Positions 46,657 through 52,900 of a stretch of DNA of 64,000 nt are shown here, piece after piece. This DNA is from Curvularia clavata (taxonomy: Eukaryota): NCBI GenBank assembly GCA_023920165.1, contig CP089274.1:5146001-5210000 (forward strand), in the 5' to 3' direction. Position numbers and translations under genes: made by a program. The notes beneath the pieces were generated by a model, which was not told where the DNA came from, made no database searches, and saw only the letters and a list, made by a program, of their open reading frames with translations. Positions within the stretch are counted from its first letter, which is position 1; every line of letters starts with the position of its first letter.

Positions 46657-47516
46657 TCATGTCAAATTTCTCGGGAGTGGCGCCCTTTCAGCGGGCGGCA
46701 TAGTCCTACCGCTAGAATCTGTTTCCGCGATGTTAACAAGCCTGGGTGCAAGATTTCTGGCCTCATGCCTAATAGACCCTCTTGTGCCTCCCTGATCACC
46801 ACGACTACTTCCAGCAGGATAGTTTGTGTTCTCCCAACCCCTAGTCTCCTGAGCTGTCCGAGCGCGTTCTCGCTCTCGGTCGTGCCGCAGCATTGAGGAA
46901 CCTTCGTCTTCGAACTCTTCGTCTAGTAACTCTCCATCCGCAGTATCATAATCCGGTGGTGCTATCCATTCCCGTGGTACTACGCATGGTAGAGCGACGC
47001 CGATGCTAGCCGCACGGTTCAGATAACCTGGGGCTGGGCGTCCGGTAAGCTTCTCGCAAAGGTATGATGTGAAGTGATTGCAGTTCTTCGTAAGAAGATT
47101 GTACGAAGTTCCTTGGAATTCTTGTGAGGCCTACAAAGAGTCAGTTGAGTGGCTTGCACATTTCCGGTATTCCAGACCTCTTGTATTATAGCATCGAGCT
47201 CTTCGGCAGGGCGAAATGAGAAGCCGTGTAGGATCGCTTGCTTGAACGTGCCACCTGGAGGCTCTAACCCAGGTTTGGTCCAGTACACCCCCGTGAGGTC
47301 CCGCCGGTCGTGTCCTCCGTATGCGTATTCCTTATCGCCAATAACTACACCGGAATGCAAGAGTGAGCTGCCAATTGCCCAGAGGATAGTCGAGATTTTG
47401 CCCGGAGGCAGCAGGTCATAGACATTGATAATGACTTCGGTTCTCTGCATAGACAGTGTGTTCCGGTGTTGGCTGGAACTCACCCGCGCGGGTTTTGGTC
47501 GCGTGGAGGATGCCAT
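46657..47516 (-). CDS. PPPDE/DeSI-family cysteine isopeptidase; intron 47131-47177
   Basis: INVYDL, catalytic His in HSGVVIGDKEYAYG, and YNLLTKNCNHF after splicing. Confidence 0.9.
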
Positions 47517-48176
47517 TCTGTGCGCTTTTCTACGTATTATCTGGGTATAGCATGTACTGCCGTAGGTATTTCTGTTGTAGTACCACAGACGAGGGGTGGG
47601 GTATCATGGACACTGGCAAAGGGACGTTTAGTACTGAGGATGCGGCTCGGTAAAGGCCATAGGGCGGGACAGATGAGGCCAGTGGACCGGGGCCAGCCGG
47701 TGAAGTGATATGCGGAGAACGAGGTGTGGGGACCAGAGATAGAGGATGGGGACGGAGGCCTCATGGCCGTGGATGCGCAACACCGCTGTTTGGCGGTCCG
47801 CGATGCAGCGGCGCGGCTAGCAGCACTCAGGCCTGGTTGCCGCTCTGGGACTAGCGCCGAAGCCATGCCAAGCGAGCTCAGGCGGTCTTAGCACGGAAAT
47901 TTAAGCTGTAAAATTCGATTGGACTCCAGTCAACCAACCAACCCAGCAAACGCAGGAGAGCGGCTGCAAGTCACTCTCCCACCCCTCTATTTCATCACGC
48001 CCCCCACCAAGCTTCTCACATTTTCTTTCTCTTCTTTGATACCCACTTTTTACCGCCCGACAGCAAGTACTGTCTGCCAATTTTCGGCGTCTTTACCCTC
48101 TCATTCTACTCCCGCCAAATTTTTCATCGCCCTCACAGCTACCCGCACCTACGCCTCGGCGCCCAAGAAGAAAAAA

Positions 48177-49660
48177 ATGCCTCCCAAGAAGCAAGCCGAG
48201 GAGAAGAAGATCCCGCTCGGCAGGCCAGGCAACAACTTGAAGAGCGGTATAGTGAGTGAGAGCCCTATCGTCCTGCCTTGTCGCCTTCTCACATTAACAG
48301 TAAACGCCAGGTCGGCCTAGCAAACGTCGGCAAGTCGACTCTCTTCCAAGCCATCACCAAGTGCTCCCTTGGTAACCCCGCCGTAAGTCGCCTGCAACTT
48401 GGAGCTGGGAGCTTGCGCTGATTGATCCAGAACTTCCCATATGCCACCATCGACCCAGAAGAGTCTCGCGTCCTCGTCCCCGATGAGCGCTTTGACTGGT
48501 TGGTGGAGCACTACAAGCCCAAGTCGGTTGTACCTGCCCACTTGACCATCTACGACATTGCTGGTCTGACGCGCGGTGCTTCCACTGGTGCCGGTCTTGG
48601 TAACGCTTTCTTGTCGCACATCCGTGCCGTCGATGCCATCTTCCAGGTCGTCCGATGCTTTGACGATGCCGAGATCATCCACGTTGAGGGTGACGTCGAC
48701 CCCATCCGTGACTTGGATATCATCGCAGAGGAGCTGCGCCTGAAGGACATTGAGTTTGTCGAGAAGGCGCACGCCAACCTTGTCAAGGAGACGCGACGAG
48801 GTGGCCAGAGTCTGGAGATGAAGAAGCTCAAGGAAGAGCAAGCCACCGTTGAGAAGGTTCTTGACATGCTCAAGAATGGCAAGGATGTCCGAAAGGGCAA
48901 CTGGACACCTAAGGAGGTACGCATACATTTTTTCTTTCTCCATTCTTCCCCATTACAAGATGACAAAGAGCGATTGCTCTATAATCCCAGCTCTCTGATG
49001 GCCCATTAACGCTGGGCCGTTTTGAAGTGACGTCCTACTCTGATTTGTAACATATATTCTTGATTGGCATTATATCAACATGTTTGCGAACTCTTGCTTA
49101 CAATTTGTTAGGTCGAGCACATCAACCCTCTCTTCCTTCTCTCCGCTAAGCCCGTTGTCTACCTTGTCAACCTGAGCGAGAAGGACTACATCCGCCAGAA
49201 GAACAAGCATCTTCCCAAGATTGCCGAATGGGTCAAGACCAACGCCCCTGGTGACCCAATCATCCCCATTTCCGTCCAGCTTGAGGAGCGCCTTGCTGTC
49301 ATGTCGGATGCCGAGGCAGCTGAGGAGCTCAAGAACCTGGGCACCAAGTCGGCACTTCCCAAGGCCATTCAGACGATGCGCAAGGCTCTCGAGCTTGGCA
49401 GCTTCTTCACAACTGGTACCGACGAGGTCCGACAATGGACAATAAGGGTCGGCACCAAGGCGCCACAGGCTGCCGGTGTTATTCACGGTGACTTTGAGAA
49501 GACATTTATCCAGGCCATTGTGTACAACTACAAGACACTGAGGGAAGAGGGTGACGAAGCCACTGTCAAGGCAAAGGGCAAGATCATGACCAAGGGCAAG
49601 GATTATGTTGTCGAGGACGGCGACATTCTGCTCATCAAGGCCGGTGCTGCAAAGGCATAG
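48177..49660 (+). CDS. OLA1: Obg-like ATPase Ola1/YchF; exons 48177-48251, 48311-48382, 48431-48916, 49112-49660
   Basis: GIVGLANVGKST P-loop, ANFPYATIDP, DIAGL, GLGNAFLSHIR, TGS domain KAPQAAGVIH...YVVEDGD. Confidence 0.96.
48953..49050 (+). ncRNA. Intronic box C/D snoRNA, snR69-like
   Basis: Terminal stem TTACAA/TTGTAA, box C AAGATGA 48957-48963, D' CTGA 48995-48998, internal hairpin GGCCCA/TGGGCC, box D CTGA 49040-49043. D' guide TAATCCCAGCTC is complementary to the conserved LSU rRNA GAGCUGGGUUUA. Confidence 0.8.
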
Positions 49661-49987
49661 GTGGCTTGATGAGTTGATGCTTGCGCGGCTGTGTTGAGCG
49701 ATTAGAGGCTCCCAGCCATGAGTGTATGTGTTTATGATTTGTATGCGTGTCTTTTAACGAGGCATGTGAAAAGCAGCTAGTCTGTCTATGAACGAATGAG
49801 AACAAATGCACACTAAGCAGAATGATTGAACTTTTGATGTCCAGTGATCGATGTCTCTGTTCATCTGAGTTGGGATATCGATGGGTTGGTACATAGCATG
49901 CAGCTCTGCAGCCTACTCTGTGAATGCTACAAAGGAAGTGAATCTAATGACATACAGTCCAGGCATCTAAGAGGATTTGTCTCATAT

Positions 49988-52900
49988 TCACCTGGCTGAT
50001 GGTTTTGTCTCCACCAACATCCAGCTATTACCACAGACACAGTGCTTGCTCACGCCCACCAGCCACTGATAATGATGTATAGTATACCCGGGCAGACCCG
50101 GCACCACATCCTCCATGCAAGCACCACATCTCACACACTGCCGGAGCATATTCTTGCTCTTCTTTTCAGCACTTGCGTCTCCGTGTGCACCACCGCCGGT
50201 ACCGCTACCACCAGCCGCGCTCTGCAAGCTATCGCTCCGATTACGATTGCTCATGACGTACTGACCCGACGTGGTATTAACAGGATGCACCCAAGTGCCC
50301 AAGCCACGAATGATCATCTTCTGACATACATCGACGACATGCTGATCGTGCCAGATGCGTGCGCGATTTGAGTCCTGAAAGCCGAGCCACGTGGTATCGA
50401 AGAACAAGAGTCTGCCCTCGTCGATTTTGTCAGCCAAACAGCCGTTTTGCTGGTTGCTGTTCCACAGGGTATCGGTGACTAGGCGTTTGGCGACTGGGAA
50501 GAGGATATCTGGGACTTTGCCGAGGAGGATGTCGCGCTCGATGCTGTTTCGTTGGGCCTCGTTCAGATTGCGCTGCTTGTAGATGCCGCGGACGTGGTTG
50601 GTGGTTTCGCTGACGAGGACTTCGAACCAGCGCCATTCAAAGGGGAGCTCAGTCACGGCGGAGAGGAGAGGAGTGTAGAGTCTTTTAGCCTCTGGGGATT
50701 GGACGGGTGCGTTGGGGTTATTGGCATGGGCTTCTGCACTGCGTTTTACCCATTGGATGGGCTGTGCCCACAGTTTCATCATGGCTCGGGGGAAAGCTGA
50801 GAGCAGCATGAGGACAGCGGGCTTGTTCATTTCCTTGATTTTGTTCTCCAAGACTTCGCGTGTAAGGTCTGCGGGTGGCATGTCGGACAAGGCACGGCCG
50901 AGGGTGAAAAGGTCGTCAAGCGTGTATGCCATGAAATGCATTGTCCATCTGATTGTGCCGATCATCTGTGGCACTGCCTCCGGCCTAAGGTTTATTTTCG
51001 ACACGTCGCCGTGCATGCGTACAATGGTTGTCAGTATTTGTGTGACATATTTGATGTTGAGAATCTGCCATGCAATTTTGCTGCTCAAGGTACGGTTGAC
51101 GGTACCTTGGAGTCCCAAGAGATGCATTGCTGAAAGGGTTTTCACAAAGAATGGTGAGCGCCCGAGTAGGATGAAATGATTTGTAGATGAGTCGTCGATC
51201 CCGCAGTCGATATTGACTTGCAGTCCCTCGAATAGCAAGGTGATAAAGTCTTGTTTCCGCTTGTCGCTCATTGGCTCGATGATGGCGAAGATGTCATCGC
51301 TCGAGAAGTATTGATTAGCAGCAGATGAGGACTGAAGGATGAGTGCTGCAAGCGCGGCAGAATGGTGTGGGTCGTTGTCGTCTGTGGCCAATGTACCGTG
51401 TGTGTATTCCATAGAACGAAGCTTTATGGAGCCGTCTAATTGCATTCCAACAGCCATACAGTGGTTTGGGGAGAAAGCGACATGTAGCGAAGGTTCAGCA
51501 TGTTGAAAGACAAAACCAGCCTGGAGAAGCGAGGTTACGTGTTCAGTATTACCATCTGGCATGATTGTTTCCATGGTAGATCGCTTCCTGAACTCAATAG
51601 AACCATCGCTATAGCAGAAGGCCAACAGCATGTTGTACCAGATGGGGTAGAAGTCGAGGACTACTGCGTGAAGTGCAAAGTCTGGTTGCCGTTTCAGCCG
51701 AAAAGTTGTTTGGGCAGGTACTGAGCTGACACTTTTCTTCTTAGATGTGACCTGATCAAGACTATGGTGCAACTGGTTCTGCTGCTCTTGATGAACCTCC
51801 CACTTGACGATGATGCTGTAGCGTGTCTCTTGTGGGTTCATATCATATGAGATGGGATTGGGTGGCTTGGTAAATATAGCCTGGATTGTAGGCATGGAGC
51901 CGTCGTCTTGTTGGGGCGTGATAGGAAGGAAATCAAGATGGGTTAGCTGGGCAGCGACAGGACCTCTTGAGGCTTCCCCATTGCTCAAGTCATCGTTGGC
52001 AGTGTCAACTGGATTGCAAGCATCTTCGAGGGCAAGCAGTGAGACTTGGATTGTCGGCTTTTCAAAAGGGCCTGCATTTTGGCTTCGTTTGTCCGCCGGG
52101 ACATTCCAAATCATCTCCACACGGTAGAGATGCAGGCGCCTCTTGACATCGTAGGCTGCTAGTAGAAGAGTGTTGTCTGTGTCTGTGTGAGTATAGCAGC
52201 AGGATAAAGCAGAAGAGGAACATACCGTTGTTAGAGGCGAAAGCGGCGTGAGTAAACGACTCCTTGGTGGAGAGCATGGGGCCAAGCTGGGTGGATGCTT
52301 CTTGCCAGTTGTTGTCGTTTTGCTGGAAACGAAGTTTGAGTTCGCCATATCGCTTCAGGTATATGAGTGAAGCTTTGCCATCGACTGGATGATGGGCGTT
52401 GTTGAACAAGTGCTGCCTGATGTTCCACTTCCACTTCCACTTGGTGCCTTCTCGTGCAGCTGACCAGGCAATCAGATTCTAGGAGGGTGAGAACGATTTC
52501 ATCCATAACGAGTCAGTGGGGTTGCTACCTTTTGTGCGTATGGTAGAATTGCCAGCCAATGCATGCCAACGACACCATCGATTTCTGATTCTGGATGGGC
52601 AATCTCTGCTCTGGTAAAATGCATACGGTCCAGGGCCATGGCGCAGGAAAAGACCATGACGCGACCTGCTTGGTCCATGACGGCCAGGTCGTTGCCGAGG
52701 TGGCTCCATGACAGATGGGTTAATGGAAATACTTCGCGACCCTGTGGCAGCTCCAGAGGCACTGTTTTGCCCAAATTCCATTTGCCGGTTTCCGGGTTGC
52801 GCGAGAAAGTTTTGAGGTTGATTGAGTATCCATCTGGAGTGATGTAGGCGACACAGCCATTCTTGGACCAAGCAATCTTTCTATGGCGGGTCAGAAAAAG

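Follow-up and report, generated by a model that had tools for sequence, protein, structure and literature searches.

The question raised by this locus is whether a single fungal OLA1 gene can supply both the cytosol and the mitochondria, with the mitochondrial form started at a near-cognate codon upstream of the main AUG. Few ATPases are shared by organisms as distant as bacteria and humans, and OLA1/YchF is one of them. It is a ribosome-binding protein with a role in the stress response and is regarded as cytosolic in eukaryotes. The locus lies in a stretch of 64,000 nucleotides of Curvularia clavata (contig CP089274.1, positions 5,146,001 to 5,210,000), which is called the window here and to which all positions refer. 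A sequence-only reading of the window had proposed that one gene makes both forms by leaky scanning. The comparison with relatives supports this proposal: an ACG-initiated mitochondrial presequence on OLA1, with the choice of isoform made by leaky scanning, is probable.

The gene downstream of the leader was identified from its domains and structural matches as OLA1/YchF, an Obg-like ATPase. Its exons are as follows.

48177..48251, + strand: exon 1 with the main AUG (context aaaaaaATGc; MPPKKQAEEKKIPLGRPGNNLKSGI), splice joint 48251/48311
48311..48382, + strand: exon 2 with the P-loop GLANVGKST inside, joints 48251/48311 and 48382/48431
48431..48916, + strand: exon 3, the G domain, from spliced RNA contigs and an MMR_HSR1 match
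49112..49660, + strand: exon 4 including the stop codon, with the coiled-coil and the TGS/YchF C-terminal domain, from RNA contigs, Pfam and a structure match

All three introns were confirmed by spliced RNA contigs. The G domain was of the Obg/MMR_HSR1 type (PF01926 against exon 3: 24.3 bits, cut-off 21.9), and the C-terminal YchF-specific domain was matched by PF06071 (YchF-GTPase_C, E = 6e-34). The closest solved structure was 1ni3_A (named YchF, E = 5.7e-62); further solved relatives were 2ohf_A (GTP-binding protein 9) and 7y9i_A (Obg-like ATPase 1).

The following features were distinguished upstream of the main AUG.

47889..47891, + strand: TAG closing the OLA1 frame on the upstream side, read from the sequence, upstream of the RNA-supported leader
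47944..48176, + strand: OLA1 5' leader at its minimum extent (233 nt), from the spliced RNA contigs X3 and X1; no intron, ATG-free, G-poor and C-rich
47997..47999, + strand: proposed near-cognate start ACG (ttcatcACGc, A at -3), located 60 codons upstream of the main AUG
47997..48176, + strand: N-terminal extension of 60 codons, predicted to be a mitochondrial presequence followed by a short linker, based on frame conservation, composition, codon-position pattern and relatives
48036..48038, + strand: in-frame TTG (tcttctTTGa, T at -3), an alternative start less likely than the ACG

The OLA1 frame had been described as open and AUG-free from 47919 onwards. It is open and AUG-free, but the limit was an underestimate: with the in-frame TAG at 47889-47891, the frame upstream of the ATG at 48177 stays open back to 47892. 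From 47866 to 48176, none of the three frames contains an ATG.

RNA contigs from two studies reach into the leader, X1 up to 47967 and X3 up to 47944, and each is contiguous into exon 1. They represent RNA because they are spliced. They extend 30–53 nt upstream of the ACG at 47997. The ACG is transcribed. As the spliced contigs reach 47967 and 47944, the transcript starts upstream of the ACG and not downstream of 48100, which had been named as a position that would speak against the long form. Two low-depth metatranscriptome contigs (X9 and X13) start downstream of the ACG, at 48053 and 48063, from which many transcripts might lack it. The stretch 47780-47943 was uncovered in X1 and X3. Since a contig may end where its transcript does not, this gap and the starts at 48053 and 48063 count as no more than hints.

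Within the window alone, the excess over chance was barely visible. The leader contains 12–14% G and 38% C. Over 47912..48176, a single stop was found in the three frames together (TGA at 48037, outside the OLA1 frame), and two of the three frames were open. In 5000 dinucleotide-preserving shuffles of 47944-48176, which served as the null model, the last 60 codons were stop-free in 25% of cases and ATG was absent in 55%; 2.2% combined an open frame with the absence of both ATG and Asp/Glu. The low G content of the leader makes for a weak signal in the window alone, and only the comparison with relatives makes it strong. No unusual folding was found in the leader or in the ACG region (z = -1.6 and -1.3), and no start-enhancing hairpin was predicted directly 3' of the ACG.

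A total of 334 relatives were found, and the best 80 loci were taken, 75 of which contained exon 1. Together with the window, these gave 76 sequences with 67 distinct upstream regions. Sixty-one of these had at least 240 nt upstream, namely the window and 60 fungal metagenome loci; L012, L013, L021, L046, L050 and L052 were too short and were left out. Counts over the 61 sequences are not independent events, since the loci, all of them unlabelled metagenome contigs, are related by phylogeny. The loci are not near-duplicates: their identity to the window over the extension and exon 1 ranged from 30 to 78%.

Over the last 48 codons upstream of the AUG, the OLA1 frame (frame 0) contained no stop in any of the 61 sequences, in contrast to 50 stops in frame +1 (31 sequences) and 52 in frame +2 (41 sequences). 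Going upstream in bins of 16 codons, the number of frame-0 stops was 0, 0, 0, 3, 23, 19 and 28 (49 sequences with 600 nt). The exclusion of stops thus ended sharply at about -60 to -65 codons, and from -65 the frame resembled the other two. The nucleotide element RYVGCNRGNNCYRY was present in 60 of the 61 sequences at 19 different distances from the AUG (60–138 nt), each a multiple of three. One additional second match to this element lay 211 nt from the AUG and was out of frame. The last 150 nt upstream of the AUG were free of ATG in all three frames in each of the 61 sequences, where base composition would predict ~88 in total. The main AUG itself had A at -3 in 58 of the 61.

Substitutions were analysed in 13 close sequences (78 pairs), using an alignment that was guided by the frame-0 protein and hence favours frame 0. 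Differences at codon positions 1, 2 and 3 were 0.353, 0.265 and 0.413. In this frame-0-guided alignment, the median dN/dS was 0.55 in frame 0 and 0.82 and 1.23 in the shifted frames; a value of 0.55 points to only modest constraint. Judged by the comparative counts, the OLA1 frame is kept stop-free by selection and not by composition. The sequences indicate that, in many fungi, selection keeps stops, AUGs and most acidic residues out of it, starting at a conserved near-cognate codon.

This codon is the ACG in most cases. The sequence-only reading had placed the start at the ACG at 47997 in a good context, which could be read directly from the window, and the same codon was the conserved one in the relatives. 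In the zone from -210 to -130, A..ACG occurred 49 times in frame 0 (39 of the 61 sequences) and twice and once in the other frames. When an ACG (35), CTG (10) or ATA (5) with A at -3 was sought 19–23 codons before the stem element described below, 50 of the 61 sequences had one; under the same spacing rule, the control frames gave 2 and 9 of 61. The codon aligned with the ACG was ATG in L005 (weak context, C at -3) and ATA in L043. The rule did not hold in 11 of the 61 sequences, and L018, L038 and L041 had no convincing near-cognate codon.

Two other codons were considered as starts in the window. The TTG at 48036, earlier suggested as an alternative, is indeed in frame; it is the poorer start and was ruled out as the main one, with T at -3 and a frame conservation and stop exclusion that continue past it further upstream. 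The in-frame CTG at 47964 was also ruled out: it has C at -3, and L001 and L004 have an in-frame stop between the CTG and the ACG.

Read from the ACG, the 60 residues are TPPTKLLTFSFSSLIPTFYRPTASTVCQFSASLPSHSTPAKFFIALTATRTYASAPKKKK. Two parts of this peptide are of interest.

48021..48044, + strand: block F-S-F-S-S-L-I-P (F.SSL in distant relatives), a hydrophobic/hydroxylated core from the alignments, with TTGATACCC nearly invariant in the close group
48144..48155, + strand: R-T-Y-A, a predicted processing site conserved in frame 0, followed by S-A-P-K-K-K-K and then the main Met

Matrix presequences are characterised by a near-absence of acidic residues, a net positive charge and richness in Ala, Arg and Ser. 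The 60 residues of the window had been described as free of Asp and Glu, and the count was indeed 0, with 8 Lys/Arg, 19 Ser/Thr and 7 Pro. Over 48 codons in the 61 sequences, Asp and Glu together numbered 29 in frame 0 (0.9%) versus 186 and 126 in the other frames (4.3–6.3%), and 40 of the 61 extensions had neither residue. The mean net charge was +7.25 in frame 0, compared with +2.3 and +3.2. The composition of the extension across the 61 sequences was 12.7% Ala, 9.4% Arg, 15.9% Ser and 8.7% Leu. The highest 11-residue hydrophobic moment was that of SFSSLIPTFYR within the 48021..48044 block (muH 0.60). Outside this one window, the moment of the proline-rich extension was unremarkable; the best 18-residue value was 0.40, and all of these are raw values without a reference set of known presequences. 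No long hydrophobic core of the signal-peptide type was found in the alignment of the extension.

Under the R-3-type rule, MPP cuts and Icp55 then trims one residue, with the motif R-x-[YFL]-[AS]. At R-T-Y-A, MPP would presumably cut after R-T, and Icp55 would take off Y. The conservation of an R-T-[YF]-A-S motif had been proposed as a check, and it was borne out: R.[YF][ASTV][SKTRA] was located among the last 22 residues of frame 0 in 52 of the 61 sequences, compared with 1 and 0 for the other frames. In these 52, the motif lay 7–16 residues before the main Met. The nine sequences without it include the near variants TRFAS, TRYAS and RSFAN.

The best-conserved block of the extension is of a different kind.

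48060..48073, + strand: small stem-loop ACAG-CAAGUA-CUGU (family consensus GCAG-CARGNN-CUGC), encoding T-A-S-T-V and in relatives A-A-G/S-S/T-A

This stem-loop was present in 60 of the 61 sequences. In the alignment, 98.2% of the cells were paired, with compensatory changes at three of the four pairs, and the stem-loop keeps a fixed spacing to the start codon. A stem longer than 4 bp was rejected, as the fifth and further pairs formed in only 26, 10 and 22 of 57 distinct sequences. At motif codon 4, the third base was T in 57 of the 61 sequences, while the encoded residue varied between T, S and P. From this pattern, the block is constrained as nucleotides and not as amino acids, and hence a part of the apparent peptide conservation is not at the protein level. 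A covarying stem-loop may coexist with coding, and we judge that it does so here.

A profile of the extension plus exon 1 matched 435 cluster representatives at E <= 0.001 and 179 at E <= 1e-10. Among the 150 matches listed, 117 span from profile position 12 or lower through 89 (manual count). No full-length annotated OLA1 bearing the extension was present among the 150 best profile matches (44–349 aa). Fifteen of the 150 were inspected and were genomic ORF calls running into intron 1 (P0005, P0007, P0011, P0014, P0017, P0021, P0041, P0051, P0062, P0068, P0088, P0107, P0111, P0132 and P0144). Since the leading M of such calls may be a non-AUG start chosen by the caller, it was not counted as evidence of an AUG start. 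When longer proteins were searched by word index with only the extension as query, two of 85 candidates matched. Both were long spurious ORFs in relatives that read through the extension, i.e. sequences and not annotated isoforms.

Three other explanations have to be weighed against an ACG-initiated presequence. The leader could be a plain untranslated pyrimidine-rich one, with the open frame and the look of the peptide as by-products of low G and of selection against upstream AUGs. The window taken by itself would suit this: two of its three frames are open with one stop over all frames, a quarter of the shuffles are open for 60 codons, 55% lack ATG, and the folding is not unusual (z = -1.3 and -1.6). 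However, composition affects all frames equally, and the comparative counts contradict it in loci of 30 to 78% identity. Stops numbered 0 versus 50 and 52, with a sharp boundary ~65 codons upstream; the spacing of the element shifted by multiples of three only, over 19 spacings; and both the ACG (49 versus 2 and 1) and the depletion of Asp/Glu (29 versus 186 and 126) were specific to the frame. We therefore regard a purely untranslated leader as hardly credible. It is also very unlikely that the conservation comes from RNA or DNA elements, for example the GCAG-N6-CUGC stem-loop or another proximal promoter or start site, and not from a protein. Such elements would agree with the fixed third base T of motif codon 4 (57 of 61) beside a varying residue, with the three compensated pairs of four and 98.2% paired cells, and with the starts of X9 and X13 (48053 and 48063) adjoining the stem-loop. 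Yet an element of 14 nt cannot account for the exclusion of stops, ATG and acidic residues or for the triplet-only indels over the ~55 codons flanking it.

It is harder to set aside an extension that is translated from a near-cognate codon and that, instead of being a presequence, would adjust the output of OLA1 as an in-frame initiation sink, change stability or bring the protein to another destination. The frame and start-codon evidence points to a translation-type constraint and is silent on the destination, and the nucleotide-level stem-loop at a fixed spacing to the start hints at initiation control. On the other hand, the exclusion of acidic residues (0.9% versus 4.3–6.3%), the charge of about +7 and the richness in Ala, Arg and Ser would be unexpected in a merely regulatory extension. 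The same applies to the R-x-[YF]-[AS] that 52 of 61 sequences have 7–16 residues ahead of the mature N-terminus, and a long hydrophobic core like that of a signal peptide was absent from the alignment. We consider this alternative unlikely, although it deserves some weight.

The presequence thus remains the preferred explanation, and most likely a minor share of OLA1 is sent into mitochondria via the predicted extension. The following course of events would fit the sequences. The 5' end of the mRNA would lie at 47944 or further upstream. Of the scanning 43S complexes, a minority would initiate at the near-cognate ACG at 47997 with its A at -3, giving a precursor with a basic, acid-free extension of 60 residues rich in Ser, Thr, Ala, Phe and Leu. 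This extension would act as a matrix-targeting presequence and would be cut after import at R-T|Y-A-S, by MPP and then by Icp55. The mature mitochondrial OLA1 would keep about eight added residues (ASAPKKKK) before MPPKK. The majority of ribosomes would bypass the ACG. Because the leader has no AUG in any frame, they would go on to the AUG at 48177 with its strong context, and the product would be cytosolic OLA1. A single gene would in this way provide a ribosome-associated YchF ATPase for the cytosol and for the mitochondria. Initiation at the ACG, import, cleavage and the mitochondrial role are what we infer from the comparison. Of the findings that were named as speaking against one gene with two products, a transcript start downstream of about 48100 and a frame broken by stops or frameshifts in relatives were looked for, and neither was found; the proposed check on the R-T-[YF]-A-S motif also came out in favour.

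The proposed arrangement has known counterparts. In yeast, ALA1 (ACG ACG) and GRS1 (UUG) yield mitochondrial isoforms from upstream near-cognate codons. As in these genes, one OLA1 mRNA with an AUG-less in-frame leader would give a minor presequence isoform from a near-cognate start and the cytosolic form from the downstream AUG by leaky scanning. Unlike them, the client is a YchF ATPase and not an aminoacyl-tRNA synthetase, and the extension is longer (60 codons), is conserved across many filamentous-fungus-like contigs and contains a covarying small stem-loop at a fixed spacing to the start. Saccharomyces cerevisiae has a separate mitochondrial YchF-like gene, YLF2. Like the proposed long OLA1, YLF2 would supply a YchF-type protein within mitochondria; unlike it, the YLF2 protein comes from a gene and an AUG of its own.

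PMC7049704 describes dual near-cognate use for fungal AlaRS and GlyRS, and near-cognate mitochondrial extensions for Cryptococcus ArgRS (AUU) and LeuRS (ACG AUU). The Cryptococcus cases draw on ribosome profiling and start-site mapping, whereas the OLA1 case draws on RNA contigs and comparative sequence only. In Neurospora cpc-1, an N-terminal extension is made from conserved near-cognate codons (PMC5487733). It resembles OLA1 in its Pezizomycotina-wide, stop-free extension of the main frame, in its conserved near-cognate codons with A at -3 and in the type of comparative test; it differs in that its extension has ~180 residues, overlaps uORFs and is not a targeting signal. Aspergillus fumigatus Bol3 shows dual localisation by alternative initiation (PMC11285713). 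Bol3 is also a case of one gene in a filamentous fungus with mitochondrial and cytosolic forms and leaky scanning past a weak first start, as is proposed for OLA1. The Bol3 starts are two AUGs, whereas OLA1 would use an ACG and then an AUG; with such a pair, the long form is missed by AUG-only annotation.

Searches for literature joining OLA1 with a non-AUG start and mitochondrial targeting found none, and those for a 'mitochondrial isoform' of OLA1 gave unrelated papers only. OLA1 was absent from the best-matching papers on near-cognate N-terminal extensions. OLA1/YchF did not occur in the main texts of PMC6582344, PMC7049704, PMC11974929 and PMC5487733; yeast OLA1 may be touched on in the genome-wide yeast list that supplements PMC6582344. 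In the YchF reviews PMC8779481 and PMC10144078, a word search of the main text gave no passage on a mitochondrial form. In these searches, no printed description of a mitochondrial OLA1 extension was found, while the near-cognate dual-isoform mechanism itself is known.

If the presequence is real, a YchF-type factor would be added to the mitochondrial translation or stress machinery of filamentous fungi, a large group to which many pathogens of plants and humans as well as industrial moulds belong. A conserved proteoform would have been missed by AUG-only gene models. OLA1 knock-out phenotypes in filamentous fungi would then reflect the loss of both pools. As it combines one ACG and a leader without AUG with a covarying stem-loop at a fixed distance, the gene would also be a clean natural test case for the effect of start-codon stringency on the balance between cytosol and mitochondria. 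A bolder version is conceivable, although we hold it to be doubtful: in most filamentous ascomycetes, one OLA1 gene would be the sole source of mitochondrial YchF via the conserved unannotated ACG, and the covarying stem-loop 20–21 codons further on would be a cis-element that sets the mitochondrial/cytosolic ratio, through initiation or through a second transcription start that skips the presequence. If this were true, a universally conserved ribosome-binding ATPase would act on fungal mitoribosomes under translational control.

The OLA1/YchF gene has four exons on the + strand (48177–49660), and all three of its introns were confirmed by spliced RNA contigs. The RNA data were four public runs from four studies; 20 of the 24 listed runs contain part of the stretch. 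The best solved relative of OLA1 was chain 1ni3_A, named YchF GTP-binding protein (E = 5.7e-62), followed by 2ohf_A (GTP-binding protein 9) and 7y9i_A (Obg-like ATPase 1).

Features of the OLA1 locus (window positions)
46657–47603, − strand: gene with a PPPDE/Peptidase_C97 (deSUMOylating-type) domain, divergent upstream neighbour of OLA1
48060–48073, + strand: stem-loop element with covariation, in the peptide block T-A-S-T-V (48060–48074)
48177–48251, + strand: OLA1 exon 1
48311–48382, + strand: OLA1 exon 2
48431–48916, + strand: OLA1 exon 3, Pfam MMR_HSR1 match
49112–49660, + strand: OLA1 exon 4, YchF-GTPase_C match (E = 6e-34)
49988–52354, − strand: long open reading frame of Med16 (Mediator subunit 16; Med16_N and Med16_C), converging on OLA1

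The RNA contig X1 (3969 nt) extends from OLA1 beyond 49900, so the 3' ends of OLA1 and Med16 may overlap. In intron 1 (48252–48310), a single metatranscriptome contig (X9) used an alternative acceptor at 48300/48301, splicing 48251 to 48301 and not to 48311. This removes 49 nt instead of 59. The 10 bases kept open with TAA, a stop straight after exon 1, and the form is probably unproductive.

A sequence-only reading had proposed that an ACG at 47997 starts a mitochondrial presequence of 60 codons (47997–48176) on OLA1, both isoforms being made by leaky scanning. In the deep runs, spliced contigs were unbroken into exon 1 from 47967 (X1, depth 251) and 47944 (X3, depth 118). This places the ACG on the mRNA, 30–53 nt or more from its 5' end, and the leader is intronless. 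The contigs did not point to transcription beginning past about 48100, an outcome that would have spoken against the proposal. Two shallow metatranscriptome contigs begin at 48053 and 48063. They may hint at a proximal start site besides the distal one, and only hint, because contig ends are not transcript ends.

The RNA contigs differed from the window at two extension positions: 48020 A>C (ACA>ACC, synonymous) and 48108 A>T (ACT>TCT, Thr>Ser). The strain behind X1 showed 2 differences in the 210 nt of leader covered (47967–48176), 2 in the 1182-nt coding sequence and 10 in the 3' UTR (49714–49869); the 3' UTR is thus far less conserved than the leader. Both deep runs show the upstream divergent gene's contig stopping at 47779 and that of OLA1 starting at 47944–47967. 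The ~165 nt without RNA coverage (47780–47943), as delimited by contig ends only, are consistent with a short bidirectional promoter.

Direct reading of the window confirmed the ACG with A at −3 and the complete lack of Asp and Glu in the 60 residues. The OLA1 frame is open and AUG-free upstream as proposed, but from 47892 (bounded by a TAG at 47889–47891) and not from 47919; no ATG occurs in any frame between 47866 and 48176. The suggested alternative, the TTG at 48036, shares the frame but carries T at −3. The leader contains 12–14% G and 38% C, and only one stop codon was found in all three frames of 47912–48176. In 5000 dinucleotide-preserving shuffles of 47944–48176, the last 60 codons stayed open in 25% and ATG was absent in 55%. 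An open frame with neither ATG nor Asp/Glu was obtained jointly in 2.2%. Judged on the window alone, the significance of the open frame is weak. With so G-poor a leader, the original observation by itself could therefore be explained by a pyrimidine-rich 5' UTR.

Relatives were collected by scanning metagenome contigs (without taxonomic labels) for the exon-3 peptide, and the best 80 of 334 loci (81–96% identity) were used. The exon 1 pattern M[PA]PKK...GRPGN.L[KN].G[IV] was present in 75 of these 80; L026, L028, L030, L034 and L053 begin inside or after exon 1. Together with the window this gave 76 sequences with 67 distinct upstream regions. The main set comprised 61 distinct sequences with at least 240 nt upstream, 49 of them with 600 nt; L012, L013, L021, L046, L050 and L052 were omitted as too short upstream. 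Identity to the window over the extension and exon 1 was just 30–78%, which makes for a diverse set.

None of the 61 sequences had a stop in frame 0 (the frame of the main AUG) within the last 48 codons ahead of the AUG, while frame +1 had 50 stops in 31 sequences and frame +2 had 52 in 41. Per 16-codon bin going upstream (49 sequences), the stops numbered 0, 0, 0, 3, 23, 19 and 28 in frame 0; 23, 19, 5, 11, 16, 20 and 35 in +1; and 8, 13, 26, 12, 23, 16 and 28 in +2. Hence, the protection of frame 0 stops sharply 50–64 codons upstream. L022 had the shortest complete open frame, of 50 codons. A frame-blind test gave the same picture: the nucleotide element RYVGCNRGNNCYRY was present in 60 of 61 sequences (absent from L077), at 19 different distances of 60–138 nt from the AUG, all multiples of three. 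Indels here are thus limited to whole codons. One extra match, the second in its locus, was out of frame at 211 nt. Among 13 close sequences (78 pairs), differences followed codon positions 3 > 1 > 2 (0.413, 0.353 and 0.265). The median dN/dS was 0.55 in frame 0, and shifting the frame gave 0.82 and 1.23; there is some bias, since the frame-0 protein was used to guide the alignment.

Between −210 and −130, ACG with A at −3 occurred 49 times in frame 0 (39 of 61 sequences), as against 2 and 1 occurrences out of frame; A was at −3 in 49 of the 66 in-frame ACG codons of this zone. A fixed rule (in-frame ATG or near-cognate codon, A at −3, 19–23 codons before the stem element) was satisfied in 50 of 61 sequences (ACG 35, CTG 10, ATA 5), against 2 and 9 of 61 in the control frames. 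In 41 of the 50, the codon lay 20–21 codons before the stem element. Six of the eleven failures carried ACG, ATT or GTG with A at −3 at 15–17 or 25–26 codons, L049 had ACG with G at −3, and L005 had ATG with C at −3. No convincing start candidate was found in L018, L038 and L041. In the nucleotide alignment of the 13 close sequences, the column of the window's ACG held ACG in 11, ATG in L005 and ATA in L043. In L022, L064, L075, L011 and L001, an in-frame stop just 2–9 codons upstream of the start codon excludes starts further upstream. All 61 sequences lacked ATG, whatever the frame, over the 150 nt leading up to the AUG, where base composition predicts about 88; ATGs return from about −150 nt and then climb steadily. 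The main AUG itself had A at −3 in 58 of 61.

L018 (1–576) is very GC-rich upstream of OLA1, and neither frame 0 nor frame +2 meets a stop over the more than 160 codons up to the edge of the contig. It lacks a near-cognate candidate at the usual spacing, yet has the stem element and R-S-Y-A-S.

Over the same 48 codons, Asp and Glu made up 0.9% of frame-0 residues (29 residues; none in 40 of 61 sequences), and the other frames contained 186 and 126. The mean net charge was +7.25, versus +2.3 and +3.2. The frame-0 composition was Ser 15.9%, Ala 12.7%, Arg 9.4%, Thr 9.3%, Leu 8.7% and Phe 8.3%. The predicted processing motif, searched as R.[YF][ASTV][SKTRA], recurred in 52 of 61 sequences, 7–16 residues before the main Met, and 1 and 0 times in the other frames. 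The nine sequences without it mostly had near variants, e.g. TRFAS, TRYAS and RSFAN. R-x-[YFL]-[AS] is an R-3 type site: MPP cleaves two residues after Arg, and Icp55 then takes off the next residue. FSSLI is an example of a phi-x-x-phi-phi motif, a Tom20 recognition pattern.

The best-conserved "peptide" block (48060–48074; A-A-G/S-S/T-A in relatives, nucleotide consensus GCAGCARGNNCTGC) is constrained as nucleotides. Its fourth codon is ACT, TCT or CCT: the amino acid varies, yet the third base is T in 57 of 61. GCA encodes its two Ala residues in 47 and 48 of 61. The relatives' stem-loop consensus is GCAG-CARGNN-CUGC. Under a model of four base pairs closing a loop of 6 nt, 98.2% of cells were paired (slid controls 17–52%). 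Three of the four pairs showed compensatory changes (A-U in the window, U-A in L031/L032, G-C in L054/L060), and neither the observed double changes nor the covariation score was reached in 500 shuffles. Base pairs beyond the four were unsupported, and no unusual folding of the leader as a whole was found. In most sequences the start codon precedes the element by 20–21 codons, while the distance from the element to the main AUG ranges over 20–46 codons. A classical start-enhancing hairpin sits ~14 nt downstream of the start; the element is too far from the ACG for this role. Candidate roles for the element are a weak RNA hairpin, a binding site for a protein or a component of a proximal start site.

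Positions 48030–48046 (TCTTTGATACCCAC, S-L-I-P-T) were near-invariant in the 13 closest sequences, including synonymous sites, and TGATACCC was exact in 12 of them. This conservation exceeds what the amino acids call for. The segment includes the in-frame TTG, an in-frame ATA and an out-of-frame TGA.

A profile of the extension and exon 1 (60 sequences), searched against 1.84 billion representatives, had 435 protein matches with E ≤ 0.001; 179 of them reached E ≤ 1e-10, and none reached E ≤ 1e-30. Of the 150 matches listed, 117 span profile position 12 or earlier through 89, and none was a full-length annotated OLA1 bearing the extension. The 15 matches inspected were ORF calls from genomic DNA that continue past the extension and exon 1 into the first intron, as were the proteins P0003 and P0004. 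Such calls are open by construction, so they show the spread of a homologous in-frame extension and not its openness.

Taken together, the extension is very probably translated from a conserved near-cognate codon. The finding is real, and the comparisons of frame, start codon and peptide speak for the near-cognate-started presequence first proposed: the conserved extension at the N-terminus of OLA1 has the features expected of a mitochondrial presequence that is cleaved off. The full reading, with mitochondrial targeting included, is probable. The same near-cognate mechanism is described for Cryptococcus ArgRS and LeuRS in PMC7049704. In the portions of the literature searched, no prior description of OLA1/YchF as a client, or of the depth of conservation, was found. 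Yeast ALA1 and GRS1 are the well-known examples. The mechanism is alike in all of these and the client here is OLA1/YchF; as it is already established in ALA1, GRS1, ArgRS and LeuRS, OLA1 would add a case and not a mechanism.
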